This document shows, piece by piece, positions 20,101 through 54,646 of a DNA stretch of 64,000 nt (position 1 is the stretch's first letter; each line of letters begins with the position of its first letter). The notes beneath the pieces are model-generated. The model did not search any database and was not told where the DNA came from. It was given only the letters and a program-made list of their open reading frames with translations. The DNA comes from Amoebophrya sp. A120. Taxonomy: Eukaryota; Protista; Dinoflagellata. The stretch is taken from NCBI GenBank assembly GCA_905178155.1, contig CAJINV010000004.1, positions 8,702,882-8,766,881 on the forward strand. The letters are read 5' to 3'. The translations under genes were made by a program, and so were the position numbers.

Positions 20101-20284
20101 GAAGAGGTGTGGTGTTGAAATTCAAATTGCGTTCGCGATGGAAGGTTCTTGTAAAATGAAACGATCTCCATGGGTTCGTCATCGTCTCGGGGCACGAATT
20201 AAAATTGAATGATGTTTATGCGTGGCCTGGGCTTCTGCACCTTGTTCCAAAAATAGATACTTCAGGCACAATCGGTGTAGAAGT

Positions 20285-31893: not shown

Positions 31894-33646
31894 ATTTCTT
31901 TTGAAGTACTTGCAACCCTTTCCGAAGTAGTAGCAGATGGCTCGTGCTGTCCCCTCGCGGGGGTGCTGAGGTCTAATAAAGTCGTTGAAACATTATCTCC
32001 GTGATAAGGAGTGGTATTAAAAACGACAAACTAGCGGCTCATAGAAATTTCTGCCCTGTTGGTTTTTGTGGAAGTGGACCACGGTCGTTAGTTGAATTGT
32101 ATACTGGACGGTAGTTGTGCCACGAACATCTTCGTGGGTACAACTAAGTACCTACTCCCGCGGGTTCCGCGTAGTGGTAGTACATGAGGAGGACAGTAGG
32201 GAAAATAAAAAACATTGGAAAAAATTCTCCGCTTCTGATCTTACCCTTGTTCAGCTCAGTTGCAATTTTGATCCACCGCACAAATTTCCTTTTCAACATC
32301 TAACAAAGGAACTCAATTTTTCTTTTTTCGACCCCGTTTGAGCGCCGCAGCAGCGTGACGCCGTGCTAAATTTTGAACGCGCACGCGCAGGGAAGATGCG
32401 TGGCCAGTTTCGGCGGCCTCAGAGAACCTGGTCGCCCGACCCTTGTGGCCGAGCACTGCGAATGCAGCACGAGGGGGGCGAAGCACGCACGGCGGAACGA
32501 AGGATCGCCCGGAGTGCTGCAACGAGCGCTGCCCGCATGAGCGACGGGCGGGTGCCTCGAGGATGAGCCGTGACCTGCGGTGGCACGCGGGGCAGCGTTT
32601 CAGCTCGTATGCCGTGGATGCCCACGGCAAAATTCCGGAACGCCATGCCGCGCAGCTGTTCCATGGCGCGGACGTCAGTAGAAGCTAGTAACCCGACCTG
32701 CCTGCTGCGCTTGGATCACAAAACAGCGTCAAGGGGGGGCGCCTTGCGTCCGAAACCGACTGCCCCGGGGGGCGCGGGCTTGCCCGAATTCCAAACAGGC
32801 GGCCGGCCCTGCGCGCATCCGCAAGAAAGTCGCGCGCCGCTCCCGGAACGCAACATCGGCCGCCCGGCGCCGCGGGCCGTGCAGGAAGATATGGCCTTGG
32901 TCTCACGGATGAATAACGCCTCCCGCGGTAGGGGGCCGCGCCGCCTTCGGCCGTCGTGCTTCTTGCCGCACGCATCCAGAGGCCAAGGCGCTTGCCGCAG
33001 CGGGGGCGGGCCGCCAGCAGCCCGCGGCGCGGGTTGCGGCGTGGTTGCCCGGGGCCAGATTCCAGCGCGCAAGTCGATCACGCACCCGGTTCGCCACGCC
33101 CGGTCCGTCGCGTTGCCGATCCTCCGCGCTAGGAGCCGACCGGGTCCACCCCCGTGGTTGCTGCGGTGCTTTGTGGGTGCGTAGCATTTTGCGAAGCCGC
33201 TTGGACATGGGTCCGGCTGCGGATTATGCAGCGCCGCTGCCTCCGGCCCGTTTTCCATGAATTGGGCATGGTAGGATGCATCACAGGAGGACTTTGTTCA
33301 TTTTTCAATTTTTTCAAGAACTTCCCAGATTTTCACAATATGGTGGAATCTGGATGATTGTGCTACGAGCCACGGTCCGCGCCAGCAGTTCCTGTATTTT
33401 CTTTTATCCCAACAGCCAATCCAATACCATGCAATGCTTATTTTTCCTATTTTTTGACTTTTTCAAATTTTGAAAAATTCGTGCGATGATCATACCCCTG
33501 AATTTTCTCGCCAATATTGGCAATGAAAATGGTCTACTGTATGAAATTGCAGGATCTTTTCAGTTTATAATGCGGAATATATTTTTAGTGATAAATTCAC
33601 GGCATTTTTGAGCTGTGAAAAAATTTCAAAATTTTTTCAATGTCAA

Positions 33647-34654
33647 CGCTACTTTGTGAAGTAGTGTGTCGTCGTGAGATGCTGAGAGGAGAAGAGGGCA
33701 AGCGAGGAATTTGGTGCGTGAGCTTTTTGAAATTTGGAGCGCTTGACACGAGAGTGTCTGGCTTGAAAGAATCGCACGGGAAACAACTCTCATGAACAAA
33801 TCAACTTTTGAGCCAAAGCCTGTAGCTGCACTGCTTGTTTTTTTGGGGAACGTGAAAAAATCTACCTGCACAGGGCCTCCTTGTGCGTTTCTGCATGAAA
33901 ATCTGCTTACTAGTACCGCTGTGGTGTTCCGACTTCGATATCTGCATTTTGAGTACACAGCTTTACTATTCTAAGATCGGTCGGCCATGCCTTCTAGTCC
34001 CGCGCGCGTCGCGTCCGTCAGCGATCATTTCTGCTACGAAAATATCTGTCATTCTAGTTACGGCCCTTCTCTTTACGAAATTTGCACCGATCTCGACGAC
34101 CGCACTGATTTTCTCTGGGATCGCACTTACAAGATAGGAACAGAACAACAGGACCTGTTAGCCCGCGTTACCCGCCTTGAGAAAGAAGCATCAGACTTGA
34201 AGCACGCCACGCCCGTAATCTCGGTTGCAAAAGTTTTACAGCGTCTGTCTTCCCGCATTCTGCCACGCAAATAAATCAGATTCTAAGTACAAACACGACG
34301 AGAATCTAGTACAAGCCTAGGGGTTCTACTTTTTTTTCTACTTAGCAAATCCGCCTGTCACGATGAGGAGCGCGCGAGAGAAGCGAGTAGTTGTTCCTGC
34401 CGCAGCACCATTCTTCTTCATCTTGATTTGTTACACTTTGGCGTCTGCTTTTGTGTCCATTGTTTCCGGAATCTGCTTCCATGCAAAGACGAAAAATCAA
34501 AGTACACACACGGGGATCCTACTAGAGCTGAACCTAGAACCAGAGGCGTCGGGTCGTCATGTCTTCCTATTCTCGAGCTCGCGACGCCCTATCTTAGATC
34601 CGTATTCTGTTAGAGGCGACGACGAAGGGGCTACAGGCATACTTTACTTTAACG
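33647..34654 (+). repeat. 5' LTR (cgctac...ttaacg)
   Basis: About 98% identical to 53639-54646 (about 20 substitutions counted by eye, no indels). Confidence 0.95.
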
Positions 34655-34674
34655 CGGCACCCCTGACGGGACTC
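34655..34674 (+). promoter_or_regulatory. Putative tRNA primer-binding site (tRNA-Arg-like)
   Basis: cggcacccctgacgggactc directly follows the LTR; reverse complement gagtcccgtcaggggtg-ccg resembles a tRNA T-stem/acceptor 3' end, with CGG instead of TGG. Confidence 0.55.
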
Positions 34675-34869
34675 TCACCCAATGAAGTCCTTATGCATCA
34701 CTTACAAAACGAAAACTTTTTCAAATATTTCCACCCACCCAATTTCATAGGAAGCAACTTACTTACCTCTAAAGCACTACTTACTGTCGGAGCACCACAG
34801 CGGAGCGCTAAAAACTTTTTTCTTTTTTCACACTTTTGGGGCGTTCAGATCCAGAAAAGAAATCCCGAT

Positions 34870-37800
34870 ATGTCGGGAATTGACTGGTCGGCCTTTCCTA
34901 CCCGCGCGCAGCTCGAGCGGCAGCGAGCAACCAGGCGGCGCATCGGGTTTGTTGAAGGTCTTAACGAGAACACGCGCTGCATCTTCATCCGGAGAGAGCG
35001 GTTTTTTGCGACCCTCGGATCCGTTGATGATGGTGCAAACGCCGACGAATGGATCTGCGTCCGGTGCGTCTCCGGCAAGACTTTTTCTGCAGTAGAAATT
35101 TCCGTCGCGGGGGAGGAAAACCGCGTCGAGCTGCCCACCTGGATCCAGTGCATTATTACCACCGGAGGAAATCCGCCCGTCAAGCGAATCGCGTCGCACT
35201 TCGTCAAGTGCCGCAGCCTCCTGATCTACTTCCCCCGCGCTTCTACACCCCAAGACCGACTGTCTTTTTGCCGCGACATCGCGACCCGCTTTGGTCTCGA
35301 CAACCCGCAAATTGTGACGATGGACGCGCGCTTTGAAGCAGGAGCACAAGGAATCTTCAACACCGCCGGGGAGTTGACCGATGTCGCGGTCGAAGCCTTT
35401 TCGCGCTTTGGAGTCTTTGACAAGATGGGGGACCACAAGTTTACCAGCGATAAGGACCTGATGTCCGAAGCGTCGCAGAAGATGGAATTTTGGGGGTTCG
35501 ACAGCGAAGGCGTTTTTTTGTCTGATTTGTGTGATGAAGAAGTGATCAAATCTATTTCCGACATTGACGCCATTGAGTCTGAGGCGTACGACGAAACCGG
35601 AAAGCTGATGGAGATTGCGATGACGCCCGAGCTCGTGGTCGTTGCCTCCCCGGAGAAAGCCCTGATGGGTACTACCTTGCAGGAGCGCCGCACCATTTCT
35701 AAGAACTTGCAGCCCCGCCTGCTCAATGACGACACTGCCTCGGTGATCCTCGACCCGGTCGACCCACCCGACTCCGTTATCGGAGACCCCGAGAACACCG
35801 TCTCCTCCGACTTGAAAGCCCTGATCACGTCGCTGAAGTACCCGTCCAAACCGAAGAACTTGCTCCCGATCGACGAATACGGCAACTTGCACCTCCCCCC
35901 GTCCCCACTGCCGAAGTCCCTCGCTGCGTCGCGATCCGCATCGAAAGCCGGTGGGGCGGGACCACTCGGAGGTACTGACTCTTCTGGCTCCGACAGTGAC
36001 GCGGTCGACAAAATTTACGCTGGCCTGCAGGAGATGCTTTTCGCGAACGACTTGTTTCCGGTCCGCGCGTGCAAGTACCTCGTCGAGTACGAAGGAACAA
36101 AAGATGATATTCCCCACGACAAGATGAGAGGAATCATGCAAAAAGTCGGAAAACTGCATGAGATTCCGGAGAAGCTCTTGCAGGTCCCGAAGGTTAAGAC
36201 AGGTGGAATTTTTGAGGACGGTCTCAAGTCCCTGCACCTCCCCTCCGACAGCGGGAAAAAGGACGGGCTACAGGTTTTGTTTCTCCAGAACCAGTCGCAG
36301 AATCGCACCTGCACCGACGAAGAGTTCAAGTCTTTCCCGAAACTTGCTATCAGCGGTTCCAACTACATCGCGGAGCGTGACGCCATCTGTCAATGGTTGT
36401 ACAACATCGCCGATGGCAGTTCAATCCGCGATAAAGCAGTGGTTTACTCGAAGGGGTTCTCCGCCATGCAGAGAATCAAAGGCGAAAAGGTTTCTGTGTG
36501 GGTCTCGTGCATGCGCATCGCGGACAACTTCAAAACCGAACCAACTTCGCGACGATTTGAAATTGGCTTCGAGATGGCGCTGGAGACCTTCCAGAGCGAC
36601 CAGTCGAACACCCACGACGGCGAATACATTGGTCTCTTCCGCGTCCTTGTCTCCAACGTCGACGATTATGTGAACAAAATCTTCGCCGAGGACGCTACCA
36701 GCTACCTGGAACTTTTGATGCAGTCGCGCATGATGTACCAAGCCCGCATGAAAATCGACAACGAAGCCCTGGCCGGGTACCGCATTGCAAAAGAAGAGCC
36801 ACGCGCTGTGCAAGACGTTTTTATCCGGCGCTGGCCCAAACTGAACGAAGGGCTCAACCACTGCTACGAACGCTGTGTGCGCAAGCACGAAAAACACCCG
36901 AGCCGGTTCATCGTCGCGGTGTACCACGCTGCTTTTGGAGTTTTGACCCTCCTCCGGAAGCACCAAGATACGATCAAGCCGCGCCCGAAGGAGATTGACT
37001 CCAAAACTTCTAAGGAGATCGCGCCGCACAATCGCATCAAGAAAAACTACTACATCCCCACAAACGACTACACGGAATCATCTTCCTCTTCTTCCGCGAA
37101 GGTAGTTGGTGCGTCTATGAAAAACGCCACTACGGGTGAGGAAGTCCCGGTCTATGACAACGACGACGGATACAGTTCTATGTACGACATCCCGGGAGTC
37201 TCTCCCGCGCCGTCCACGACCCCGGCTTTCCGCTTCAGCTGGGACGGAGATGCTGAAGAAGCGGTGGAGGCGAAGTTTGACCTTGCGATCGGTGACAGCA
37301 GTGATCTCCCCATCTGCCCGGTGGCGGAGGCAGACCGGTGGGATTTGAACAAGTATTCAACTCCCGAGTGCAAGGAGAAGGGTTGGTATCCCCGGTGGGA
37401 GATGCAGCGCGATGGCCAGCATTTTGTCTTCATCATCTATGACAACCGGTCCGACATCCGAAACCGAAAACTCGCGGGACCGGGACCGCTCCCGGGAAAC
37501 CTCTGTATCCTGGCGCTTTTTGGACAGTGCTTCGCGCACATGCGGTGCGGTTGTGCCCACTGGCAGCTCGAAGACTGGGCAGCAGAGGTTTTGCGCAAGC
37601 GCTGCATCGCCGATGGGTTCAAACCGCAAGAGGGCATCGAGCTGATTGCTTTCGCGTTCCACCTCCTTTTGTCGAACTCGAACCGCACATACCACAAGGA
37701 GTTCAAGGGCTTGTCGGTTAAGGACTGCTTCAAGATTGGCTCGGAGAAATACTCCATCAAGAACCCGCTGAAAATCGACCCGCGTACGAAAAAAGACGAC

Positions 37801-37944
37801 CACCGGATGGCAGCTGCGCGCATCACCTTGCCTGTGTACTCGAAGTTCATCAACGACTGCGACGGGTTGTCCCAGGAGCAGAAGGACCGTCTCCTCGAGC
37901 TGAAGCGCATTTTGCAGCGCATCAAGCCGATGTCCCTTTTCTAG
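34870..37944 (+). CDS. Gag-like ORF1 with CCCH zinc finger
   Basis: Long ORF after the PBS (plausible ATG, MSGIDW, 1024 aa); C-x7-C-x5-C-x3-H (CILALFGQCFAHMRCGCAH); the ORF-track start at 34363 lies inside the LTR. Confidence 0.65.
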   Translation: MSGIDWSAFPTRAQLERQRATRRRIGFVEGLNENTRCIFIRRERFFATLGSVDDGANADEWICVRCVSGKTFSAVEISVAGEENRVELPTWIQCIITTGGNPPVKRIASHFVKCRSLLIYFPRASTPQDRLSFCRDIATRFGLDNPQIVTMDARFEAGAQGIFNTAGELTDVAVEAFSRFGVFDKMGDHKFTSDKDLMSEASQKMEFWGFDSEGVFLSDLCDEEVIKSISDIDAIESEAYDETGKLMEIAMTPELVVVASPEKALMGTTLQERRTISKNLQPRLLNDDTASVILDPVDPPDSVIGDPENTVSSDLKALITSLKYPSKPKNLLPIDEYGNLHLPPSPLPKSLAASRSASKAGGAGPLGGTDSSGSDSDAVDKIYAGLQEMLFANDLFPVRACKYLVEYEGTKDDIPHDKMRGIMQKVGKLHEIPEKLLQVPKVKTGGIFEDGLKSLHLPSDSGKKDGLQVLFLQNQSQNRTCTDEEFKSFPKLAISGSNYIAERDAICQWLYNIADGSSIRDKAVVYSKGFSAMQRIKGEKVSVWVSCMRIADNFKTEPTSRRFEIGFEMALETFQSDQSNTHDGEYIGLFRVLVSNVDDYVNKIFAEDATSYLELLMQSRMMYQARMKIDNEALAGYRIAKEEPRAVQDVFIRRWPKLNEGLNHCYERCVRKHEKHPSRFIVAVYHAAFGVLTLLRKHQDTIKPRPKEIDSKTSKEIAPHNRIKKNYYIPTNDYTESSSSSSAKVVGASMKNATTGEEVPVYDNDDGYSSMYDIPGVSPAPSTTPAFRFSWDGDAEEAVEAKFDLAIGDSSDLPICPVAEADRWDLNKYSTPECKEKGWYPRWEMQRDGQHFVFIIYDNRSDIRNRKLAGPGPLPGNLCILALFGQCFAHMRCGCAHWQLEDWAAEVLRKRCIADGFKPQEGIELIAFAFHLLLSNSNRTYHKEFKGLSVKDCFKIGSEKYSIKNPLKIDPRTKKDDHRMAAARITLPVYSKFINDCDGLSQEQKDRLLELKRILQRIKPMSLF

Positions 37945-37997
37945 ACGACCCCACCGATGAACCACGACAAACCGAGCCAACATTTTTCATTGGTGGG

Positions 37998-39503
37998 GTG
38001 AATCAAGATCCCCGCTTGTGCGATTTTTTCGAGGACAAGCAGTCGATCGAAGACGCATTGGCAGTTGAAGATGAAATGACACATGATGAATCTTTTTGCT
38101 CTTCTCAAGAACATTCTCTTTTTTCAGAAATCAGCACTCAGCAGGAGGAGAACGCTTCGCCGGCGGATGTCCCCCCAAGTGAAGGAGTTAGTGACGACCT
38201 CGACATCGCGAGCAACTTCAACGCGATCGGCGAGTCGGAAGAAAACTCATCGGCTTCAGGAGACCAGTCTTTTGGACCAATTTCTTTGATTAGCTTCGAG
38301 GACGCCGACGGAGTAGTGGTTTCTGTTGAATCTCCACCAACGGGCGGCATCACTGGGCCAATCGCGGTGGAAGCCCCCTCGTCAACAGCCTCCGACTCAA
38401 ATCGTTTTTCGCAGATAGCAGATAACACCAACGCTAGTGGGACGGAAAATACCGGCCCTGCGGCACAAATGGAAGAGTCGCAGGACCGGGACCGGTATTC
38501 TTATCATTCATCTTTTGGTGCGAATGATAATACCGGTCCTGTGAGTCCTTTTGATGATAAAACTGAAGATTTGTTGTCCTCGCCTCCGAAACTTCAACAA
38601 CAGCACTGCCTCACAAAACCGTCCTGTTCCGACACTCCCCCTGGAGGGATAACCGATCCCGGCACCGGAACTGGCCAGATGCGATCGAATGCCGATTTCA
38701 ACGAGGCGCGGCTCTTAGGCCCTGCAAGATTCAAGATGGTCCTCCTCGCCCAGCAAGCCGTGCGGGAGTTCGATTGGAGCCATTGGATCACTTCTGGGGA
38801 ATGGCGAGACGAAGTGTCGAAGCAGGATTTTGGATACCTTATCCGCAACAAAGATACGGACGAATCTTACTTCTGCCCTGACATTTCTGCAGAAAATCGC
38901 ATTTCCATTATGCGACCAGGGGTGTTCGGTAACCCGTTCCGCATCACAAACGAAACCGAGAGAGAATCTTCGGCAATCAAGTTTGCAGAATCCCTTGCAG
39001 AAGAAACCGCTACTGACGCGCTGGACGCTTTTTTTCAGAAGCAGGTCGATCCTGATGCTACTGCTAAGTGCGAACTCGTTTGCGTCTGCGCCCCTGACCT
39101 GTGTCGCGGTGTTGTATGGGGAAAGGTGGAACAACTCCTGATCAAAAAACTCCAAGTAGAAACCGCAATAGCAACGTCCCCTACGCCTTCGCGAACTCTT
39201 CTTCCAACGGAACAGCCGGGAATGAATGTATCCTCCTCGGACTCCGACGATTCTCCCACGGCAAAAACAACGGAGATCCCCGCTAACGACCACGAGGAGT
39301 ACGCCCGGTTCTTGCGAGAAGCTACTGCTTTTGAAGAAACGTACGAACAGCGGCAGATTGCGAAGGGCTTCAATTGTACCGGAGTGAAGAAGGTTCGTGA
39401 AAAGGTTGATGGTCGCGGAGGTCCTGTGCCACTCCTTTCCTTCCCGCCGCCGTCGCGATGGCGCACTGTCCGTGAGCCGATTCTCGTTGACCACAAGCTT
39501 TGA
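37998..39503 (+). CDS. Pol N-terminal segment: acidic low-complexity region + DUF4326-like domain
   Basis: RPGVFGNPF...LVCVCAPDLCRG; frame open from 37722 (-1 overlap with ORF1); same frame as the next ORF, separated by one TGA. Confidence 0.6.
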   Translation: MNQDPRLCDFFEDKQSIEDALAVEDEMTHDESFCSSQEHSLFSEISTQQEENASPADVPPSEGVSDDLDIASNFNAIGESEENSSASGDQSFGPISLISFEDADGVVVSVESPPTGGITGPIAVEAPSSTASDSNRFSQIADNTNASGTENTGPAAQMEESQDRDRYSYHSSFGANDNTGPVSPFDDKTEDLLSSPPKLQQQHCLTKPSCSDTPPGGITDPGTGTGQMRSNADFNEARLLGPARFKMVLLAQQAVREFDWSHWITSGEWRDEVSKQDFGYLIRNKDTDESYFCPDISAENRISIMRPGVFGNPFRITNETERESSAIKFAESLAEETATDALDAFFQKQVDPDATAKCELVCVCAPDLCRGVVWGKVEQLLIKKLQVETAIATSPTPSRTLLPTEQPGMNVSSSDSDDSPTAKTTEIPANDHEEYARFLREATAFEETYEQRQIAKGFNCTGVKKVREKVDGRGGPVPLLSFPPPSRWRTVREPILVDHKL

Positions 39504-39530
39504 AGAAAGCACTCGCATGTTGTTGTCCGC

Positions 39531-42500
39531 GTGGGTACCCGCATTGTCATGCCCGACAAGTGCGGCTCAGACCCGTTCAAGTACCTCTACCACGGGACAG
39601 ACGAGGACGTTATGGACGCAATCGCAGCAATGGCTTCTGTCAGTTTTCTTTCGACTGAAAAATCCGGCTCCGCCCTGAACATAACCCTCTGCCTCCTCAA
39701 CTTCCAGTTTTTCGAGTGCCAGCACGCGATCCGAGATAAAGACCAATGTGTACCTCCTTGCACCGTGACGAACTTGAACCCTCTGGCCTGTGACCCGAAG
39801 CTCATGACGTCGGCGCAACAACTGTACCACGTCACAAGCACAATGGCCTGTGGAAAGGTCGCTCTTGTCTGGGGCGTGTTTGGGTCAGGAAAAAGTCGAA
39901 CAATCGCCGCGGTCATTTGCGAACTGACACGCAACAAGGTGTGCCGGTGCGTCCACTTTTGCGCGGCACAGAGTCTCGCTCTCGACTCGGTCATTCGGAG
40001 ACTCCATAGTCTTGACGTCCCGACCGTCCGTTTTTCTTCGCGAGCACACCTCGAAAAGCAGAAAATGTCCAAGAAAAGCATCTTATCCTCCTTCGACGAA
40101 ATTTGTTCGCTTGTTGGTGCTGCTAGACCGACGAGCGTATTCGCCGAATATTTGAAGGAGAAGAAGAAGCGTGATCGACTTGCCGCGAGGAGAATCTACG
40201 ACAGAAAACAAGAAAAGCGATTCCTCGAAAGTCGGAAGTGGTGTGTCAAGGTTGTCCTGCGGAACGCAAAAGCAGTGTGCACAACTGTGAACAATTCCCC
40301 GAGTGTCGGGGGCGCGGGAGCCGAGATTACAATCGTCGACGAGGCAGGCCAAATTCCGGAACACGAGATGATCCCCGCAGAAGCAGGCGCGCAGCGGATG
40401 GCTTTGGTCGGAGATCACAAACAACTTCCGCCTGTGATTGTTTCTTCACGAAAACTCCCACCGCCGAAGGCAGCAGTAGCAGGACAGTCCGAAAATGCGA
40501 AACTTCTTCCCCCGACTGTCCCGGGACCAGGCAGCTTTGACGTCACTCCGCTGCGGAAGAGCCTTTTCGAACGTCTGATAACAAATGCAGCCGGAGAAAC
40601 AACAAACGCCACTGCTTTTCTTGACACACAGTTCCGCTGTCCACCTGTTCTCGCTGCACACCTGAGTGCCGAGTACTACGAGGGGAAGCTGCGAAGCGCC
40701 GAAAATGCTCCTGCAGAAGCAAAGTACACTTTTTCGCACCAGTTCGTCGGAGTCGATACAAAACCAGACATTTTTCTAGCGCGACAAGCAACAGACCGGA
40801 TAAAGCCGTACGTCTCCCCATCAACAGCAGAACGCGTCCGAGAAATGCGAGACTTTCTTGCTTCCAAGGGTGTGCTTCTGTCCGACATTCAATGTATCTC
40901 AGTCTACAAAGCCGCCGGCTCTGGGATGATCCCGCTTGTGAAACCTCTCGCCCTCGAGGGGATCGACGCATTCCAGGGAGGAGAAGTCCAAGTTTTGTTT
41001 GCGCTGATCCTGACTCCGCCTTCCGGCCCTACCGAGTGGGCGACAGACCCGCGCCGCAATTTGGTTCTGTTGTCGCGCGCTATTAGCGCTGCCTTCGTCT
41101 TTTACCCGCGCGTCGTCCAGGATACCGACACGTGCTTGAAGTCGATGGACATCTACATTCGCAACGCCGAGAAGTGTATGCATATTAGCGACACCTCTTC
41201 TATCCCCATCACCGTCGAGAAGGTTTCTGCGCCAACAGTGACAACAGTTGCCGACACGAAGGATCCAGCAATTGTCGCCGAGATTCTAAAGGACCTCGAC
41301 GGGGAAAAGACAGCGGACGACCCAGCTGAACAGGCCACGATGTTTTGCTTGCGCGAGAGTTTTTCCTCAGAACTCCACCGCTTCAATTCCGTCAGCGGCA
41401 CTGACGACTTAGAAGACTTGATGTTCCTTGACTTCGAAGATCTTGCCCTGGAGGTCAACGACAAGGCAGTCGAGGCAGCTGTTCTTGGACACCACGGAGG
41501 GAAAGAATATGCTCTTGAAGCTCTCCGCGCGGCGGAAGCAGCAGACGACGGCCACTGGCTGGACCCACACCTTTTTGGCAAAATTAAGAAAGGAGAAAAC
41601 TCGCAGACTTCGAAGCTAGAGCAGAAGAACAAATACGGGAATTTCGAAGTCTCCGCTAGTGAGATTTTTGTAGCGAAAAACGGGTGCAGTTTTTGGGTTG
41701 GAAACTTCGCCGCGACCAGTCTCCCTGGGTGGTACGTGGTCACTAACTGCACCTCGAATGTAGAAGACGCCAACAATTGCGACTTCTACCGTCGAGTCCC
41801 CCTGGTTTCCGGTGCGGAAAGCCGGAATGTCCGCGCTTCGCGAAAAAATCTGAAGTGGATTCTTCGGCACGCACAAGCAGAGAAGAAGACTTTGCTTCAC
41901 TGCGTCTGGGGACTTGATCGCTCTCCTGCTCTTTGCCGTGTCGTCGCGTACTTTATCGATGGGCTCGAAACACCTGCTGTCGAGATTTTCCGACTGTTCT
42001 CCGATGCCAGACCTCGCGTTAGGTACAGCTTCCGCGAGTACGACAAGTTTTGGCGCGACGCAATCCAAGCGCAACCTTCAACGAGAGTCCGCCTCCTAGA
42101 CGACAACTGCATGATCGAGTCTCTCCTTGACGGAGCCCGCGCCAACCCGAGCAAAATCATCGACGAGGACGACTTTATCCTTGAAAAATGTGTGCAGGTG
42201 ACCTCGAAAGCGATCGCTGCGATTGAAGCGAAGCCGCCCCGTTGTCCTCGATCCGCGATTCCACCACGAACATACATGATGAGCTTTCGCCTCGAGTCTT
42301 ACAACCCCGACTCATTGAACATCTTCCTTTCAGATCCATCGCGAGCATCTGACGCTGCAGAAGTTTTTGTTGCGCTCGCGCCGTCCTGTCTCGGACTCCC
42401 AGAAGCAAAACTTTCAACGAAAACGGCGAAGACTGCGCGCGATCTTGTTGCTGAGCGGAATTATGAGCTCACAAACTTCCTCAACGAGCGCGAAGAAGGA

Positions 42501-45500
42501 AAGCATGGGTGTTCGGTTGCAATCCCCGTCGACTGCCCGCTGAAACCGATCGCGATTCGCCGAGGTCCAAGCAAAGAAGGCCGCATTGCCATCGTGGAGT
42601 GCCTCTACTTCAGCGTCATTTTCGAGTACGCGCCAAACCGTGTCAACGACGCAGCGAACGCAGAATATGACAACGCCATCGCAGGATGCCTGCGAGAGCT
42701 GTGGAAGAGAACGCAAAAGCCATTTGTTTTGGCAGGCGATAGAAATATCGCGCCAGAAAAGAGAGATATTGCGCCAAGTCCACGGCTTTCTGCAGAGCAG
42801 GTCCCTTCCACCCGGCAGACAGACCGTGACGCGTACGACAAGTTGATCAAGGAGTTTTCACTTACCGACGCGTGGAGGTGGTGCAATCCGACCGCTGAAG
42901 GGCACTACACCGGGTTCCACCAGCAGGGGAACTGTCTCCGTGACAACGTCGGGGCTCGAGTCGACCTTTTTCTTCTGTCACCAGGGATGATGCCGCTCCT
43001 TCAAAACTGCCAGATTGTCACGACCGTCCACAAACGTCTTGGAGATCATCATCCCGTCTACTGCGACTTTTTGTTGGACTTTGGGGACGAAGTCATTCGG
43101 TCTGCCGCAGCGAAAAGAGGCATTGCAAAAGCTCTCGCCGCCCCGGCAGTCGACCCAGCAGGAAGGCAAAACTCTTCTCTTTTTGTGGGCTCCGTCGCGC
43201 ATGACGAGCGGTTTGGAACACTAGACTTCGAAGAACAGCCCGTGGCAGAGGAGGAGGAACAAGAAGAAGGTAAATCTGAGCAGAAGACAGAGTTTGCAGA
43301 GGAAGACGAGAAGTACAAGAAAATCGAGGAAAATTTCCTACGCTCGATCGGGGTTCTCAAAGAATCACACGCGTACCAGAAGGCTCTCGCGGTTTTGCGG
43401 AAGTGGATTGACGGCCGTCTCGCAGCAGGGTACACAACTTCGCAAGTGTATCAGATGTTGATGATGGACGACGCAACCGCTCCTGCGTACGCACTGGACG
43501 ACGCGTTTTTGAAATTTCTTCTCAATCTCGGGGCGGTGATGGAACTCGGGGGTAAATACGGAGTCGACAAAACGAAATTCTTGTCGCTGGTCGAGAAAAG
43601 TTGTGGAATGATTTTGAAGGGCGGCTGGCTATCCGTCCCGGAGAAGATGGTGAACGACATCAAAAAACTCGCTCGCTTACCACCAACGCCGCGCCTGATG
43701 AGACGGCTCCTGGGGAAATTAGCTTTCTGTCCAAACACCCTTGGGCTTGAGTACTCTCGCCAGGTCCCGATCCTGATCGACCTTTCTCGGAAAACCCTGC
43801 AGGAATACATCCGAAAACTCCAAGAACCAGCAGCAATTCACGCCATGGAAGTAATTATTTCTTCTTCTTCTGTCACGCCGCTTTGCCCAATTGATTGGGA
43901 TCTCGTCGATAGCGGGAAGTGGGTCGTCATTGGAATGCCTGATGCTCATTGTGTCGGGTGGGGAGGCGTCCAGTTTAGCATCGACCTCGACATATGGCTA
44001 AGCGACGACTGTTCCGATGTGCGTGCTGCGATCCGAATCCACGCAATCAAAAGCACCCCGCTCCCACCGCGACTGCGAAACCGGTGTAGCGCCGAACATG
44101 AATGCTACGCGACTCTCGGGCACTATCAGTACATTGACTACTTGATGTCGGGGCGAAACCGGTTTTGGTGCAACGACAACACAAATATCGCCACGATCGA
44201 GGATGAGATGCACCGCTGTACGGTAAAAAGTTTCAACTCTGCGATCGGGTATTTGAAAAGATTTTTTGACCAGCCGGGTCCCACGCGTCTCATCCTCCCC
44301 GAGATGTTGATGGCGTGGGGAGATGTTGCTGGCCGTCTCCACCGAAACTGCGTTGTCGCGGCGTCTCTTGTGCAAGAGACTTTGTCTCAACCGAAGCAGG
44401 CACTGAAGATCCTGTTTCCGCACGTAGACTTCGAAAAACGAGGCGAAAGCAAACGAATGAACATTATCACGGAAGAGGAGGTGAAGGATTTCGCAGCAGC
44501 AGCAGAAGAAGAAATGCATTCCTCCTCTTTCCGCGCGTGCTCCCTCGTTGGAGTCGACCCTAGTGTTGAGGAACATGATGTCAATGCGTTCAATTTCTCG
44601 GTCGTCGATCTTGTCGAAGAATTTCCGACACCGGAGACACTTGATGGGTTTACGTACGACGACCCCTTTTTGCACCGCGCCCCTGTCTCTCGGTCCTTCA
44701 GCTCAGCAGAAGTGATGGAGGTAGAAGCTGCGCCGGCATTGACCGATGATGAAGACCCTGACCCAGTCCTGGAGCCGGTCGCGCAATATGTGATTTCAAA
44801 CCCAGAGCAGTGCTCTACGCTCTCGGTAGACTTGATTTCTACCGCAGATTCGTCCGCCACGATCTGCTGCCACGAGCTCTACCTCGACACGGACGACCAC
44901 GCTCTTGCGCGGTCAGGACATCTATTCGTGAAAAGATTCAGCACCGACGAAAACGCCGTCGACTTTGCTCTCGTAATCGGCAGTGTTTGGGACGGGGCCA
45001 ACCCTGACGCTGTGTACGGCGACGACGCATTTACAATTGTTTGCAGCGAGCTCAAGCTGAAGATGAGTGGCGAAGAACTGCGGAAAAAGTGCGACGGAGT
45101 CCTGCAACACCGAGTCTGTGCCGACGAGTATCCCTTGATGACTGTCTCGGAAGTTGACATGAAACAGGTCTCGTTGGGGTTCCGCGCACAACAAATTGTC
45201 GACTTTTCCTACTGTGTCGACCTCCTTTCCTTCACTCCTGTTGCTGGGTTCAAGGGTTTCGACCTGACAACAATGATGAAAACGACCCGAATTTTGCGTG
45301 TGAGGCAAGAATCCGCGGGGGTGTGTAGCGTTTCGGATTTGGAGCTCGCTTGGCGCATTCGCGAAGACAAGATCGAGCGCGACGACACGTGGACCCCGAT
45401 CCTCGCGGTCACAGCACCTGCAGTGCGAAAAGCATGGCTTAACGCCGTCTACGACTTCAACGTGCTTTCTAGTTTCCGTGTGGGTGGAAAACGGCATGGA

Positions 45501-48467: not shown

Positions 48468-50493
48468 CATCAACGGCGCGATCAACCATTTCCGCGACAT
48501 CGCTGACAACACAACAGACGAGAACAAGAAGAATTGGGCACAGTCGCTAGCAGATAAACTTCGTTCTTGCAAGAACGTCTTTGACAAGGCCCGCCTGAGC
48601 CTTTGCGATGGTGCTGTTACCGAACGGCTGGCGATCACCCTCGGAGACGAAGCAGTCGAGATTCTTCTTTCGCACTACGAAGGTCCCCACTGCGTCTCCG
48701 GGTTCACCGGCGGGTCCCGCGACTTGAGCCCCACCGTGTTGCAATTCAAGGTGTACTTGTGCGACCGGCGCACTGGTCGACTCCATCTAACCCCATGTGT
48801 CAACAACTATGTGACGCGGCCGTGGTGTCGGAGTGCCCCCACCTGGGAAACTCTGGGCGTTGCCTTCGGAAGCTGTGATCTAGCCCGTTTCAACTTCCGA
48901 CTTTCGAAAGAAGAGCCAGAGGTTATTTTTGATCTCCCCGACGGTGTCACGGTTCACGTCGCAAACCTTGTCAAGTTCCCAGACGCACCATTGTCGCCGG
49001 TAACAGAATCAGCAGCACAAGAAGCCCGAGTGCTCAGCATCACAAAGCCATCGAAGGAAGAAATTGAAGCGCTCCGCGGAGAAGAGGCAGACAAAACAAT
49101 AACTCTCCGTGCGGGGCAACAAGCAACAGCGGTGGTCGATATTCCTGTTCTTGCTGGAACAAAAATCAAAACTTCGCTCACGACCCCGACAGATGCAGAG
49201 CGGCTTCTCCTCGTCCACAATGGCCATGTCGTGCCTCTGATTATGGCTGCACCTCCGTCGCACCAAGTTACATTACGAGTGGAAGCAATCAAGCAGAAGG
49301 CGCGCATCAAAAACGGAGTCATCGGAATTACTATCACTCCGTTCCACGGAAACTCATCGCACAACTGTAAGGTCCAGTTAGGGGAACTCGCGGAAGAAGT
49401 TGGTCTTGATGCTGCAATGAACCTCCTCACCGGTGAGCCGCGTGATTTGGGTCCCGGTTTAGAGCAGGCAGGAAGTGGCCAGCTCAACGCAGCGGGCGCT
49501 GTCTCGAATATTCCAGAACTCACCCCTGCCTACATGGAAGAATGTCGGAAAGAACACGCGAAATTTATCGAGACAAAGAAGAACAGCAGCGAAGGGCCCG
49601 ACAAGTTTCTTTTCCACGTGTGGCGACAGTATCTCAGTACCGCAGACTGCGAGGCTTTGTATACTTCTTGCGCTCGAGAAGGTCGCGACATCGAGAAAAC
49701 AATTAAGCTGTGCGAGGCGTTCCTCTTCATCGCCGCTGTCGAGTTCGGGCACAAAACGCAGATGACGGAGGGGCACACGATACCGATCTTCAGATTCCCT
49801 GGTTGCGGGTCGGAGCTTATAAATCATAGCAAGACCCCACCGGAACAACCCAAGCGTTTCCGAAACCCGCCGGATTTGGATGAAATAATGCGGATGCTGA
49901 GCGACCAGGATGTGATGAGTGACATCGTCGAAGCCTTGTCTGCTACGAAACACGGGTCGGCCAAGTTCGTGAGCATGACCATGTGGGCCCAGCGGTCTAA
50001 CCGTTTCCTCGGGCGGTGGGTTTCGATCCTGAAGGGGCCAAACATCATGAAGCAAGAAACATACTGCTTCTCGATCATCCCCTCCCAGATCGTCGACGGT
50101 CTCCGGCACCATCTGACAATCGGTTACATCGCGGTGGACATAAAGAGAGCACTTCAAGGAGTCCGCGTTTTTACCGAGCTGGGACTTTGGTTGGCGATGA
50201 CAATAGGAGACACTGTTTTTATACCCAAGAGGGCCAGTCTCGGTTTTACCAGCTGGCCGGGTATTTTTGGACAAATCGTCAACCCGATTTTCCAGGGACT
50301 CCGAGCTGGTCCAGAAGCAGCAGCAGCCTTCTTCTTGGAGCTCGTCGACCCGCTTCTAGAACTACACGCAGAAATGGAGAAAGTCGGATTGGCAGACGCG
50401 TGCCGGTCGTGTTCACACTCATACCGTGCGTCAATTACAGAAGAGAAGAAACAGCTGCACGCCTCCCAGCGGAGTGGGAGAGAACAAGAGTAG
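48463..50493 (+). CDS. Pol C-terminal segment: dUTPase-like beta region + RT N-half (motifs A and B)
   Basis: Frame open from 48430 (+1 relative to previous ORF); PKRFRNPP, RWVSILKGPN, AVDIKRALQGV (motif A), PKRASLGFTSWPGIFGQIV (motif B); no YxDD follows. Confidence 0.75.
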   Translation, partial: FDINGAINHFRDIADNTTDENKKNWAQSLADKLRSCKNVFDKARLSLCDGAVTERLAITLGDEAVEILLSHYEGPHCVSGFTGGSRDLSPTVLQFKVYLCDRRTGRLHLTPCVNNYVTRPWCRSAPTWETLGVAFGSCDLARFNFRLSKEEPEVIFDLPDGVTVHVANLVKFPDAPLSPVTESAAQEARVLSITKPSKEEIEALRGEEADKTITLRAGQQATAVVDIPVLAGTKIKTSLTTPTDAERLLLVHNGHVVPLIMAAPPSHQVTLRVEAIKQKARIKNGVIGITITPFHGNSSHNCKVQLGELAEEVGLDAAMNLLTGEPRDLGPGLEQAGSGQLNAAGAVSNIPELTPAYMEECRKEHAKFIETKKNSSEGPDKFLFHVWRQYLSTADCEALYTSCAREGRDIEKTIKLCEAFLFIAAVEFGHKTQMTEGHTIPIFRFPGCGSELINHSKTPPEQPKRFRNPPDLDEIMRMLSDQDVMSDIVEALSATKHGSAKFVSMTMWAQRSNRFLGRWVSILKGPNIMKQETYCFSIIPSQIVDGLRHHLTIGYIAVDIKRALQGVRVFTELGLWLAMTIGDTVFIPKRASLGFTSWPGIFGQIVNPIFQGLRAGPEAAAAFFLELVDPLLELHAEMEKVGLADACRSCSHSYRASITEEKKQLHASQRSGREQE

Positions 50494-51303
50494 ATCATAG
50501 AAATTCATAGCGAACCAATACAAATCGCCTCAACTTTTTGATACACGAGAAATCAGCCTCTTTTTCCTTGCGCCGTTCCTATCACAGACCGAAGATCCGC
50601 GCCACAATTTTGCTTTGATCTATACAATTTTGCTTTCGTGCACTCGCGTGCTTCAATCCCAATGCAATCATAGTCTTTTCAAAATAGGTAGCACTAAGTG
50701 CGAAAAGTAGAAGATATCGAACCGACACAAAAAAAAAAAAGGGAGAAAGAAAAGGATGCCGTACTTCGTCTTCGCGGGCACAACTATTCTATCTGACCGT
50801 GACGCAAGTCCTCGCGCGTTACATACAATTCAGAATACTGCCTCAGAGACAATCTATTGGAGGGGTAGCGGCTCGCTCACGGCAGCGCGGTTACGCGAAA
50901 ACGATCTCCAGTACGCACCTCCTAGTAGCGAAAGTAGTTCTAGTTCTAGTAGCGAAAACAGTTCTAGCACTAGCAGTAAAAGCAGTAGTAACGAAAGTAG
51001 TTCAAGCAGCACAAGTTCACACCGCGCTCCAATCGCTAATCGAAGAAGGAGGAAATCACCAATGAGCGGACAGTTGCCGTGTAGTTCTATGCACCCAGGC
51101 GGTTTTGCTCCTATTTGATTTCCTTTTCCGTTTTTACGAAAAGGAAAGATTAAGGAAGAAAAAAAAAAAAACAAACTACGAAAAAAAAAAAAGAACGACG
51201 CTTTTCTCTGACTTTACAATAAATAAACTTCATCCGTTTACTTTCCCTTACCTCATTTTACTACTAAGTTCTCTCCCGCTCCGGCCGCTTCCGTCCGCTC
51301 ACC

Positions 51304-52617
51304 ATGTCGAAGCAGATTGACGAAAAAACCGGAGAACCGTTACTCCGCGGCGGCACTCCGGCCTTGCATTGGTCCGGCGCCAGTAAGAAAAAGGGAGGAA
51401 ATAAAACCACGGTGAAAGAAGAGCCTTCTCCGACCAAAACTACCGGATCCGCTGGAAATAAGGGGAACAAGTCTTCCGCTTCCGGTGCGAACAAATCCGC
51501 CGCTTCCGGCGCGAACAAGCCCGCTTCCGGCGCGAACAAAGCCGCTGCTTCTGGCGCGAACCAGACGCCCGATTCCGGTAAGAACAAACAGGCGAAATCC
51601 GAGGACGAGTTAGTGTTGCAGAAATCGAAAAAGCGCCGGAACAGCCGCGGCCAATTCTGCTCCGACCCCGCGAAGCGCATCAAGGAAGAAATTACGGACA
51701 AGCAGCTGGATGAAGAATTGGAATACGATGTCGCCCGCGCGGACGAGATCCGCGCCGCCGCTACTCCGCCGATGGTGGGAAGTGAAGGAAAGAAGGGATA
51801 CCGCACCAAGTCGGGACCGGTCGTGAAGGAAAAGCAGGCGCAGGCTTCGGTGGGGAAAGAAGGATTGCCGGAAAAATATGTGCATATTCCGTCGAGTGCC
51901 GAGCTGTTCGTCAAAGACCAGTGCGAAAAGCTGAAAAAGAACCATCAGGAGTTGTTCGACACGCACAAGGAGCTGCTCGCCGACTACACCAAAACCCACA
52001 AGAAGGCGGTCGAGAACAAGGAAAAATCCGAGGCGATGAAGTTTGAAAAGCAAGGACTCGCGGCGGACTACCACAAGCTGCACGAGGAAAACATGTCCAT
52101 GAAGAGCGCCCGGAAGATGGGCGAGCTGCAGGCGGAACTTCGTCTGTGTCGTAAAGAGTTGGAAGAATCTCGCCAGGCCCGGCATGGTGACAGGGTGATC
52201 ACCCGTCGCCGTTTGCGAGATCGCTACTCCCACAGCTCCGCGGCCGATACCCACTCCTCCGAGCTCATCGGAGATGACTCCGATTCTGGGTCGAATTTTA
52301 CCGCCGGCATCGACGCTGCGCGCAACAAGGGGAAGAAAGGAGGAAAGTACGACGGTGGAAAGAAAGGGAAATTTTTTGGTGGTGATTTTGTCGACGGCGG
52401 CTGGATGAACGGAAAATACGGTGATGCCGGAAAGAAAGACGGGATGAAGGGAAAGGACGGCGACGGCAAGAAGGGCGGTCCCATCGGTCCGGCGGACCGC
52501 AACCGCGATGATGACTCCTCCGACTCCGTCTTCGGCCCCACCCGTCGCTTCACCAAGGGCGGAAAGAAGGATAAGAATGGTGGAAAGGCGGGCGAATACA
52601 AGGGTGAAAAGAAATAA
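51304..52617 (+). CDS. Accessory ORF of the LTR element: Lys/Gly/Asp-rich with SGANK repeats and central coiled coil
   Basis: 437-aa ATG ORF with coding-like composition between pol and the 3' LTR; no recognisable family. Confidence 0.75.
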   Translation: MSKQIDEKTGEPLLRGGTPALHWSGASKKKGGNKTTVKEEPSPTKTTGSAGNKGNKSSASGANKSAASGANKPASGANKAAASGANQTPDSGKNKQAKSEDELVLQKSKKRRNSRGQFCSDPAKRIKEEITDKQLDEELEYDVARADEIRAAATPPMVGSEGKKGYRTKSGPVVKEKQAQASVGKEGLPEKYVHIPSSAELFVKDQCEKLKKNHQELFDTHKELLADYTKTHKKAVENKEKSEAMKFEKQGLAADYHKLHEENMSMKSARKMGELQAELRLCRKELEESRQARHGDRVITRRRLRDRYSHSSAADTHSSELIGDDSDSGSNFTAGIDAARNKGKKGGKYDGGKKGKFFGGDFVDGGWMNGKYGDAGKKDGMKGKDGDGKKGGPIGPADRNRDDDSSDSVFGPTRRFTKGGKKDKNGGKAGEYKGEKK

Positions 52618-53638
52618 GTGTGTGACCGGGTAGCAGTGGTCTTGCGACTACTGGAGTCATAGCATTATTTTCGTAAGAAAAGTCTGGCATTTATGCAAAA
52701 GCACTAGCCCTTGCGCAATACAAATTGTTTTTCTCTGGAAATATTTTTTTCTGTGAAAAAAATATATCACCGCATCGCTCTATAGGCAGCAATCTTTGTG
52801 CCACTTCGAAGTAATCCGCAGTATCATGAGCTTTTGGGTGAAGATTTGTAATAAATTCATCCGACGCGATTCCAATAGGGTGCTGGTGTACTACGACGCA
52901 GAAATAATTCAGCGACAGAGCCTATAGATGTAGCGGCGGTAATGAAGGGGAAAGAAGGGAAAATCATCCCAACTACTTAGATCTTTTATTTTTTATGAGA
53001 GCCTCCTACTCGACAGCTGTTCAAGAAGCCTAGATTAGCAACCACCCGCGCCACAACTTTTGATCTACCGAAGTTTATAGTTGAAAGATCGTCACTTCGA
53101 AATGATACTGCCTGAGCGACAAGATCGCGCATTTTCTTTATTTCAAGAACGAAAATAACAACTGCTTTTACTTTTCGACCTTCGCCTCAACAGAACTTCC
53201 TCTTCACTCTTAAGCCCAATTTTGTTTTATGGAATTGTAATTTTTCTCTATCAGGATCGACAACAAGTGCGTCTTTTTTATGTGGTCTTCATCTTCTTAT
53301 CCTGCACTAAAAAAAACCCTCGTAACCACAGCGAACACCAAATACAAAAAAAAATAATATATAGGGCTAGCAGAAAGACATGAAAAATATATCAACAAAC
53401 CACGTAAAAAGAACGCACAGCAGCCCGCGTTCATTCAAATACAAAAAAATAAGAAAGTCCTCAAATACAAAAACAGAAGAAAATATAAAAACCAAAAACA
53501 TTTCCTTATTCCGAAAGATATGAAAAAAATATAAAACAGCTTAAGGAGGAAAAAGTGACCTTCTCCCATTTCTAACGAGCAGTAAGACTAAGTAAGAATA
53601 CGCCTTCTCTCTCAGCCATCTCACGACGCCAGCCGGCG

Positions 53639-54646
53639 CGTTACTTTGTGAAGTAGTGTGTCGTCGTGAGATGCTGAGAGGAGAAGAGGGCAAGCGAGGA
53701 ATTTGGTGCGTGAGCTTTTTGAAATTTGGAGCGCTTGGCACGAGAGTGTTTGGCTTGAAAGAATCGCACGGGAAACAACTCTCAGGAACAAATCAACTTT
53801 TGAGCCAAAGCCTGTAGCTGCACTGCTTGTTTTTTTGGGGAACGTGAAAAAATCTACCTGCGCAGGGCCTCCTTGTGCGTTTCTGCATGAAAATCTGCTT
53901 ACTAGTACCGCTGTGGTGTTCCGACTTCGATATCTGCATTTTGAGTACACACCTTTACTATTCTAAGATCGGTCGACCATGCCTTCTAGTCCCGCGCGCG
54001 TCGCGTCCGTCAGCGATCATTTCTGCTACGAAAATATCTGTCATTCTAGTTACGGCCCTTCTCTTTACGAAATTTGCACCGATCTCGACGACCGCACTGA
54101 TTTTCTCTGGGATCGCACTTACAAGATAGGAACAGAACAACAGGACCTGTTAGCCCGCGTTACCCGCCTTGAGAAAGAAGTATCAGACTTGAAGCACGCC
54201 ACGCCCGTAATCTCGGTTGCAAAAGTTTTACAGCGTCTGTCTTCCCGCGTTCTGCCACGCAAATGAATCAGATTCTAAGTACAAACACGACGAGAATCTA
54301 GCACAAGCCTAGGGGTTCTACTTTTTTTTCTACTTAGCAAATCCGCCTGTCACGATGAGGAGCGCGCGAGAGAAGCGAGTAGCTGTTCCTGCCGCAGCGC
54401 CATTCTTCTTCATCTTGATTTGTTACACTTTGGCGCCTGCTTTTGTGTCCATTGTTTCCGGAATCTGCTTCCGTGCAAAGACGAAAAATCAAAGCACACA
54501 CACGGGGATCCTACTAGAGCTGAACCTAGAACCAGAAGCGTCGGGTCGTCGTGTCTTCCTATTCTCGAGCTCGCGACGCCCTATCTTAGATCCGTACTCT
54601 GTTAGAGGCGACGACGAAGGGGCTACAGGCATATTTTACTTTAACG
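53639..54646 (+). repeat. 3' LTR (cgttac...ttaacg)
   Basis: Matches the 5' LTR; terminal inverted repeat cgtta/taacg. Confidence 0.95.

Follow-up and report, generated by a model that had tools for sequence, protein, structure and literature searches.

A family of long terminal repeat (LTR) retroelements found in Amoebophrya sp. A120 encodes its reverse transcriptase (RT) in two separated halves, which likely reassemble into one enzyme after predicted cleavage by the family's own protease. The element analysed here is 21,000 bp long (33647..54646) and lies within the window, a 64-kb stretch of Amoebophrya DNA to which all coordinates refer; the features described below are on the + strand except for the target-site duplications, to which no strand applies. 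The 5' LTR of 1008 bp (33647..34654, CGCTA...TAACG) is directly repeated by the 3' LTR (53639..54646, CGTTA...TAACG), and a direct-repeat comparison shows 988 of 1008 positions to be identical (98%) with 0 gaps, 18 of the 20 differences being transitions. The LTRs of this one element end in CG...CG with a short inverted match and not in TG...CA, and the same 5 bases, GTCAA, are found as a target-site duplication on the left (33642..33646) and on the right (54647..54651). Run X1 contains a diverged copy of the LTR whose loose end coincides with the left boundary of the 5' LTR. Since positions 34612-50965 are reproduced, with neither a difference nor a gap, by a short-read contig at single-copy depth, the layout and the breaks in the open reading frames (ORFs) are not long-read errors. 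Copy number is judged from read depth only, which is 43.6 in the element interior and 88 for the LTR contig. The direct repeats, the duplication and the short-read agreement bear out the earlier note, which had described a 21-kb LTR retroelement from the sequence alone and had regarded it as much longer than usual LTR elements and perhaps an undescribed lineage: its great length is confirmed, and no description has been found. No LTR pair was found in the relative L001, and the LTRs, the duplication and the priming sites are observed in a single element, the window copy.

The RT is cut before the YxDD motif, and its back half and RNase H are encoded about 6 kb upstream of its front half. Comparison of the family profile with solved RTs has shown that the back half (43440..43892) contains the DD pair (43467-43472), motifs D and E and the thumb, and RNase H follows at 43914..44420, as judged by motif order and position. 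The front half (49618..50410), located by profile alignment, contains the fingers, the motif A Asp (50137), motif B' and a family-specific helix near the end of the polyprotein. Each half is present once in the window, with no second RT piece. With the back-half profile, MLV/XMRV RT is matched starting at YVDD (E 3e-9) and CaMV RT over residues 298-425 (E 2e-8). The front-half profile aligns to residues 186-293 of CaMV RT with a conditional E of 1.6e-4, a weak match that is not significant alone; placed along CaMV RT, the front and back profiles adjoin (186-293 and 298-407), in an order that is reversed in the element, and the front half of P0019 matches Pfam RVT_1 with an E of 0.037. The motif A Asp is present in 17 of 17 aligned front halves and each back-half Asp in 19 of 19 back halves, and RNase H keeps D, E and D in 19/19 and its last D in 18/19. 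An LTR-class RT with three catalytic Asp residues and RNase H is present, the RT being in two pieces. The window ORFs themselves give no Pfam or single-sequence PDB match to RT, RNase H, integrase or protease. Gammaretrovirus, caulimovirus and foamy virus RTs (PDB 8wus, 5dmq, 8r0s, 7kse), whose domains are contiguous, unlike those of the window copy, are the best structural-database matches of the back half, a ranking that does not place the family because the PDB holds few retrotransposon RTs.

Both halves bear conserved extensions at the cut point. Complex prediction, carried out on single sequences without alignments, scores the pair of halves at 0.70 and the best control at 0.00; 51 of 78 solved complexes reach the score mark, as do 2 of 108 mismatched pairs. 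Contacts agree between runs to at least 91%, and the partner pLDDT is at least 69. The three Asp positions all fall within the predicted interface, as do the family-specific helices (front 616-654, back 1278-1301), and such modelled co-folding tends to reflect the likeness of the halves to solved RTs rather than binding in cells.

The RT is split in all 16 long relatives, whose median identity is 22%. Twelve of them carry the back half first, with 15-41% identity, unbroken frames and invariant catalytic residues, three carry the front half first with a spacer of 186-229 aa, and one is front-first with 1,783 aa between the halves. The front-first members read IN-PR-RT-RH and have low-complexity linkers of varying length within a single open frame. 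Every long relative is a single open frame of 1,387-5,113 aa, the halves lying in separate genes in 0/16, and the spacer ranges from about 70 aa, in the fragment P0008, to about 1,950 aa. A contiguous RT in the order PR-RT-RH-IN is found in 0/17 elements. The front-half and back-half trees largely agree, with 7 groupings in common, among them the window copy with P0001 and the window copy with P0001, P0002 and P0003, with one unstarred conflict, in which P0013 joins P0026 or P0024; these trees contain the family only, are unrooted without an outgroup and give no direction of change. The relative L001 repeats the gag, -1 and pol layout and the domain order, and the nearest named relative comes from Amoebophrya. 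Word-based homologue searches gave nothing new, scanning viral contigs and contigs from prokaryote genomes for patterns gave no relative, and the sole RVT_2 match belongs to a separate Copia-like part fused into the gene model P0003. Since the split RT occurs in 16/16 relatives as against 9/16 for the helicase, 6/16 for the phosphatase and 4/16 for the APE nuclease, the family-wide trait is the split RT and not the cargo.

An aspartic protease is assigned by motif at 48430..48930, with the motif IVDSG (48430-48444, its D at 48436) placed after the integrase, a flap-like GFTGG at 48700 and an end motif at 48865. The hydrophobic-hydrophobic-D-[ST/C/G] motif is found in 14 of the 15 relatives with the domain, the 15th of which begins inside it, and the domain has no Pfam or PDB match. 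A protease had previously been placed at DSS (44847) and DAVYGDD (45006); this candidate is rejected, as the stretch is CYTH-like, has a homologue in only 3/16 relatives and carries motifs that are not conserved. Since the true protease lies at the start of ORF4, the order RT(C)-RH-IN-PR-RT(N) is a rotated Gypsy order, so that the view that the element is neither Copia nor Gypsy/BEL holds only in that its order is not a plain one. On the conserved motifs, the pol order follows from the Gypsy PR-RT-RH-IN by circular permutation, with the cut falling inside RT.

The two halves share one open frame in 16/16 relatives and never occupy separate genes, and no protease cleavage site has been identified, as would be expected if the halves stayed covalently tied, the uncut polyprotein folding back with integrase and protease as loops. 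This arrangement is unlikely, because the protease has a conserved Asp with its motif visible in 14/16 relatives, the spacers vary between about 70 and about 1,950 aa, and the isolated halves co-fold in prediction. Rejoining at the RNA level by back-splicing, trans-splicing or circular RNA, so that the enzyme would be an ordinary single chain, is less probable still. The commonest order is the circular permutation that a circle would yield, and dinoflagellate hosts use trans-splicing, according to one report (PMC7789003). However, the conserved extensions at the cut are predicted to lie in the interface, three orders exist, one of which (P0001) would need removal of integrase and protease, and the front-first members carry their variable linkers in one open frame. 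No RNA joints of the RT halves were seen, and no run covered the element interior. Reassembly of two protein halves is the preferred explanation.

The integrase-like region (45903..46937), identified by conserved residues and structure search, consists of a zinc domain, a core with D (46131) and D (46374) and an SH3-like end. It is found in 15/16 relatives, and the first His, the third ligand Cys and both Asp residues are present in 15/15, whereas an acid at the usual third position is present in 0/15. The earlier integrase-like call at about 45940-46500 is therefore upheld for the finger, the two Asp residues and the SH3-like end but not for the third acid. The best Foldseek matches are retroviral integrases (E 0.009-0.05, TM <0.2), the C-terminal barrel has a Z of 5-6, the core is modelled with low confidence, a single-sequence fold of the integrase having a pLDDT of 32, and an ESM Atlas search gave no usable match. 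The APE1/ExoIII-like nuclease (42246..43073) is of cellular type (PDB APEX1, 1e-14) and keeps the motifs YNP, GD-x-N and GDH in 5/5 aligned sequences, the window copy included. Integration by this nuclease as in LINEs would suit an integrase lacking its third acid, but it is very improbable, since APE occurs in only 4/16 relatives and is closest to cellular APEX1, the integrase-like domain is far more widespread with both Asp residues invariant, and the clean 5-bp duplication and short inverted ends fit an integrase.

ORF1 (34870..37944), in the gag position, has a conserved central domain and a C-x7-C-x5-C-x3-H finger (37504-37560). Its homologues are the first L001 ORF (E 1e-28) and the N-terminal part of P0012, with the CCCH finger in 3/3, and it shows no capsid match in Pfam or PDB with profiles from 2-3 sequences; the proposed Gag(CCCH) is thus supported in conservation, position and finger but not by a capsid match. 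A likely -1 frameshift junction from ORF1 to pol (37929..37944) has CCCTTTTC ahead of the stop and then a stem-loop. L001 likewise shows a -1 overlap where gag ends, with the heptamer G GGT TTT, and in P0012 the gag end leads into pol in frame. ORF2 (37722..39503) contains a low-complexity region and DUF4326 (38892-39116; Pfam PF14216, E 7.8e-7) and ends in an in-frame TGA (39501-39503); P0012 has DUF4326 and the helicase in one frame. Next are a UPF1-like superfamily 1 helicase (39813..41099; Pfam AAA_11 6e-19 and AAA_12 2e-11), whose top PDB match is UPF1 (7e-16), and a dual-specificity-type cysteine phosphatase (41655..42101) with an intact HC-x5-R (41898) and a Pfam DSPc match of 4e-6, below the curated cut-off. 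By their sequence matches, the UPF1-like helicase and the APE1-like nuclease are genuine, though optional, cargo. The CYTH-like domain (44805..45359) matches Pfam CYTH in 1 of 4 aligned sequences (E 0.042), and its L001 homologue gives 0.95 in the ESM Atlas, with CYTH in 25 of 30 matches and a recognition of 2213 against a mark of 2300. Regions conserved in relatives, with no assigned function and no convincing Pfam match, occupy 46938..48400. Between the protease and the RT front half lies a beta-rich domain (49078..49443) found in 6/16 relatives, which had been called dUTPase-like and has no Pfam or PDB match. ORF5 (51304..52617) is an accessory, Lys/Gly-rich, coiled-coil-like open frame with no Pfam match, to an env gene or otherwise, and no homologue in L001. 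The domain order first proposed survives for the CCCH finger, DUF4326, helicase, phosphatase, APE, RT(C), RNase H, integrase-like, unknown, RT(N) and accessory parts, the protease slot and the dUTPase being the exceptions.

A likely primer-binding site (34655..34672) directly follows the 5' LTR. It starts with CGG instead of TGG and is complementary to what we take, by eye and from tRNA geometry, to be a tRNA-like 3' end; an Rfam search of this short piece gave no tRNA match. No polypurine tract adjoins the 3' LTR of this one element, the closest purine run of at least 10 bases being about 83 nt upstream. A GC-rich, pyrimidine hairpin arm is found there instead, as part of a hairpin spanning the LTR boundary (53602..53691) with a folding energy of -51 kcal/mol (z -4.7; 2 of 200 shuffles equally stable).

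The window copy is probably dead or no longer autonomous, because it has the in-frame stop of ORF2, a one-base frame break before the protease motif (48425..48430) where relatives read through in one frame, and Arg in place of the fourth integrase zinc ligand; the stop and the frame break are both present in short reads. Two runs guessed to be RNA (X8, X9) contain the neighbouring host gene but no contig from inside the element as far as 49799, and the RNA runs X4 and X5, whose reads match an A-rich tract only, and X6, in which even the neighbouring host gene drew no reads, provide no expression test. These lesions and the single-copy state would suit an isolated event among ordinary Gypsy copies (a dead rearrangement or a nested insertion) or their misassembly, a reading that is almost certainly wrong and, judged by sequence, is already refuted for the family, since short reads match without difference, the window has no second RT piece, and twelve diverged relatives show the same order in unbroken frames.

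The element resembles Ty3/Gypsy (Metaviridae) in its LTRs, 5-bp duplication, gag followed by -1 pol, aspartic protease, LTR-class RT, RNase H that follows the thumb, integrase-like domain of HHCC type and rotated PR-RT-RH-IN order. Unlike Ty3/Gypsy, its RT is split before YxDD into halves that move independently, its ends are CG...CG, it has no 3' LTR polypurine tract and no usual third integrase acid, and none of its core domains reaches the Pfam retroelement models at cut-off. The PR-IN-RT-RH order and RVT_2-type RT of Ty1/Copia (Pseudoviridae) are not found. According to PMC6431247, the planarian giant Gypsy-like elements Burro/GYPSM1 have an internal region of about 20 kb or more, a polyprotein of about 4,900-5,100 aa, captured cellular domains and, between PR and RT, a dUTPase-like domain that is confirmed there but not here. 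Burro as described there keeps an unbroken PR-RT-RH-IN, an env-like region and CCHC knuckles, and the cargo differs, being here helicase, APE, phosphatases, CYTH, NADAR and DUF4326. Insect LINEs and LTR elements carry a viral SF1 helicase fused to the polyprotein as non-essential cargo (PMC6338049, PMC4686597, PMC5563155); their helicase comes from plus-strand RNA viruses and their RT is unbroken, whereas the helicase here is cellular UPF1-like. A search of titles and the starts of abstracts of mostly open-access papers, Repbase not included, returned no description of such an element, and we could not find a split, reassembling RT described for any retroelement.

These observations lead to a plausible model in which an RNA of about 20 kb would give Gag and, by -1 frameshift, a polyprotein of 4,000-5,000 aa. 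The protease would release the front half (fingers and motif A Asp) and the back half (DD, thumb and RNase H), which may pack together through the family-specific terminal helices. The minus strand would be primed by a tRNA, plus-strand synthesis would begin, with no polypurine tract, where the hairpin marks the edge of the 3' LTR, and the CG ends would be joined by the integrase with a 5-bp stagger. A cleavable linker is likely to have arisen inside RT, after which the halves would have been free to move, giving the rotated pol order. The helicase, APE, phosphatase, CYTH and DUF4326 domains are optional cargo that probably aids the handling of a very long RNA or of host defence. It is possible, though rather doubtful, that the family is a novel superfamily-level LTR lineage of marine protists, with an obligate two-subunit RT whose halves shuffle, an integrase that acts on CG ends through another third metal ligand, hairpin plus-strand priming and, for copying a 20-kb RNA, a set of tools like that of RNA viruses: a UPF1 helicase, a nuclease of proofreading type, NADAR and two folds that also serve as RNA 5'-triphosphatases.

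Standard annotation misses the element, as no core domain reaches a Pfam retroelement model. The element supplies a naturally occurring split point together with docking helices, a potential split-RT tool, and offers a case for how a retroelement copies a 20-kb RNA. The RT polymerase core is treated as an unbroken unit, and pol domain order is the basis for the classification of LTR elements; a widespread family with its catalytic Asp residues on two movable pieces departs from both the unbroken-RT and the fixed-order rules.

The reverse transcriptase (RT) of the 21-kb LTR retroelement at 33647–54646 is encoded as two halves, the front half carrying motif A and the back half carrying YxDD and the thumb. 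The earlier note had placed RT(C) upstream and RT(N) downstream as separate pieces, in agreement with profile matches to the RTs of CaMV and MLV/XMRV and with the invariant Asp residues. For the back half, the strongest profile match is to MLV/XMRV RT, over the part that starts at YVDD and includes the thumb (E 3e-9); CaMV (2e-8), foamy virus (2e-3) and Ty3 (0.45) come next. The whole-polyprotein profile aligns its last domain with 186–293 and an early domain with 298–407 of CaMV RT; these segments adjoin in CaMV, whereas in the element they stand in the opposite order with about 1,750 positions between them. The front-half match is weak on its own. The motif A Asp is conserved in 17/17 sequences, and the DD and the D, E and D of RNase H (RH) are conserved in 19/19, at a median pairwise identity of 22%.

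A full HMMER scan with ORF3 1271–2469 yields 32 related proteins, 16 long and 16 fragments; P0022 was replaced by P0050, a longer member of its cluster, and the other 16 added cluster members were left out as near-copies. Profiles made without the window sequence recover all four of its core regions (E 6e-62, 1e-91, 7e-78 and 7e-21). Both RT halves and RH lie within one open frame in all 16 long relatives, and the halves are joined in none of them (0/16). The window's order, back half–RH–integrase (IN)–protease (PR)–front half with the front half C-terminal, is found in 12/16. Three of the 16 have IN–PR–front half–spacer (186–229 aa)–back half–RH, among them P0019, which begins inside the protease. 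In the remaining relative, P0001, the front half leads and the back half comes last, with 1,783 aa between them. The front-half and back-half trees have seven groupings in common and one unstarred conflict, and the order label requires 3 to 4 changes on them, so that the pol order has been rearranged more than once with the halves passed on together; the trees have no outgroup and give these changes without their direction. The window's sister is of the P0001 type, and the front-first P0019 is sister to the back-first P0050 (95/93). In the front-half tree, P0003, a EukProt protein of Amoebophrya AT5.2 whose gene model also has a Copia-like front part, belongs to the starred group that contains the window element (98/95). 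ESMFold2 prediction of the two halves as a complex gives 0.70 against 0.00 for the best control; the mark is reached by 51/78 solved and 2/108 mismatched pairs, with contact agreement of at least 91% and partner pLDDT of at least 69. This result can stem from resemblance to solved RTs; the predicted interface includes terminal helices specific to the family.

The protease motif IVDSG is located at the start of ORF4, where relatives show LIDSG, LMDTG and similar motifs. The stretch at 44847/45006, previously called protease-like, is rejected as such: it is present in 3/16 relatives and is CYTH-like, as judged from its homologue in L001, the DNA locus of one relative (Atlas 0.95, recognition slightly below the mark), and from Pfam (E 0.042). 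Since the true protease sits at the ORF4 start, the pol order reads as PR–x–RT(front) / RT(back)–RH–IN, rotated at the RT cut. Thus, the order is neither that of Copia nor an intact Gypsy order, as had been proposed, but it is the Gypsy order PR–RT–RH–IN in rotated form. A dUTPase-like identity of the x domain finds no match in Pfam or PDB profile searches, and that call is unconfirmed; the position of x between PR and RT is that of the dUTPase-like domain in Burro, fungal and rotifer elements, as described in PMC6431247. The integrase-like call holds in part: a zinc finger, two invariant Asp residues and an SH3-like end are present, but there is no acid at the third position expected from the spacing in retroviral integrases (0/15 aligned). 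Candidate third ligands are an acid two residues past the second Asp (12/15) and an acid in a variable insert (14/15). The best Foldseek matches of the predicted structure are retroviral integrases, with weak scores and a poorly modelled core.

The LTRs (33647–34654 and 53639–54646) are ungapped 1008-bp direct repeats with 988/1008 identical bases (98%), flanked on both outer sides by the target-site duplication GTCAA, and, together with read support from sequencing run X1, they confirm the 21-kb LTR element. Their ends are CG(C/T)TA...TAACG rather than TG...CA. Eighteen of the 20 LTR–LTR differences are transitions, and five are CpG sites surviving in the 3' LTR alone. An X1 short-read contig matches 34612–50965 with 0 differences at a depth of 43.6 as compared with 88 for the LTR contig, indicating that the interior is single-copy and the ORF breaks are real, although X1 may itself be the source of the assembly. 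X1 also contains a diverged LTR whose loose end falls at the same left boundary, and another X1 contig has short matches to the interior at 42932, 43452, 44195 and 47028 in preserved order. An 18-nt site, tRNA-like as judged by tRNA geometry, lies directly 3' of the 5' LTR as a putative primer-binding site (no Rfam match). The 3' LTR of the window element has no purine tract next to it, and the 37 nt upstream form a hairpin with the first bases of the LTR (-51 kcal/mol, z -4.7, matched in stability by 2/200 shuffles). Short contigs in X7 and X8, presumed RNA runs, span this boundary hairpin (about 53346–53814) and are possibly from a short transcript. Since no LTR pair is seen in L001, the one relative compared at the DNA level, the LTR ends and priming signals rest on one element.

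ORF1 (34870–37944) is followed by ORF2 in the -1 frame, closing at an in-frame TGA at 39501, by ORF3 (2,987 aa), by ORF4 in the +1 frame and by ORF5. Since L001 has the same ORF1 / -1 / pol layout, the ORF1/ORF2 shift is likely to be programmed. Relatives lack the ORF2/ORF3 stop and the ORF3/ORF4 break and read continuously across the latter position; together with an Arg at the fourth zinc ligand, these two lesions are likely to reflect decay of this copy. Alternatively, the stop and frame break may be overcome by readthrough or a programmed +1 shift. X8, whose contigs inform on presence only, has a 469-nt contig across the 3' LTR boundary and none from the interior (up to 49799), and recovers the neighbouring host gene as a 2,105-nt contig with 0 differences. 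This intronless gene (30142–31992, minus strand), contained in full in that contig, encodes two CCHC knuckles and weakly matches an RNA methyltransferase.

Pfam and single-sequence PDB searches of the window ORFs do not match the retroelement domains; they do find the enzyme cargo named earlier, namely DUF4326, a UPF1-like helicase (E 7e-16), an APEX1-like nuclease (E 1e-14) and, weakly, a DSP-type phosphatase. By local profiles, at least 9 of the 16 long relatives have the helicase, at least 6 DSP, at least 4 APE and at least 3 the CYTH-like domain, these being lower bounds as several proteins are incomplete; Pfam finds DUF4326 in 2, NADAR in 2 and PP2C in 1 of 14 relatives scanned. Since its presence varies, the cargo is optional. 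Both the DSP and CYTH folds are used as RNA 5'-triphosphatases in other systems. At 38892–39345, ORF2 has its DUF4326 followed by a stretch that aligns with the lead-in helix of the RT front half in P0002 (whole match E 2e-6), where DUF4326 directly precedes that helix; this is a possible footprint of module shuffling. Downstream of pol, L001 has a 1,028-aa ORF (18475–21561) that bears clusters of Cys and His, lacks a Pfam match and is not related to the window's ORF5.

Elsewhere in the window, 431-bp direct repeats (99%) at 48–5084 surround a 1,231-aa ORF (957–4652, minus strand) that by eye has a GIY-YIG nuclease-like N-terminal part and an RT-like YVDD motif in the middle, which Pfam did not confirm; this is likely to be a Penelope-like element. 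A PLP-dependent decarboxylase gene (PF00282, E 2e-14) is repeated at 8477–29600 in three near-identical 5,762-bp tandem units and in a fourth, diverged copy; the copies differ by inserts. Short repeated introner- or MITE-like inserts with inverted ends lie at 9213–9470, 26439–28050, 59500–60500 and other places; their core CCAGACCCAGACA is matched exactly at 15 sites in the window. The inserts in host genes resemble the introners of PMC7789003, which mentions LTR elements in general terms only. Together with the tree position of P0003, they point to a host that is likely to be a syndinian dinoflagellate such as Amoebophrya. Tandem arrays with a 16-bp period lie at 62011–62960.

The window element works like Ty3/Gypsy elements but departs from the pol order that defines that family. 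It is regarded here as a variant, possibly a new branch. A literature search found no paper describing an LTR element with a natural split in its RT, which agrees with the earlier suggestion of an undescribed lineage.
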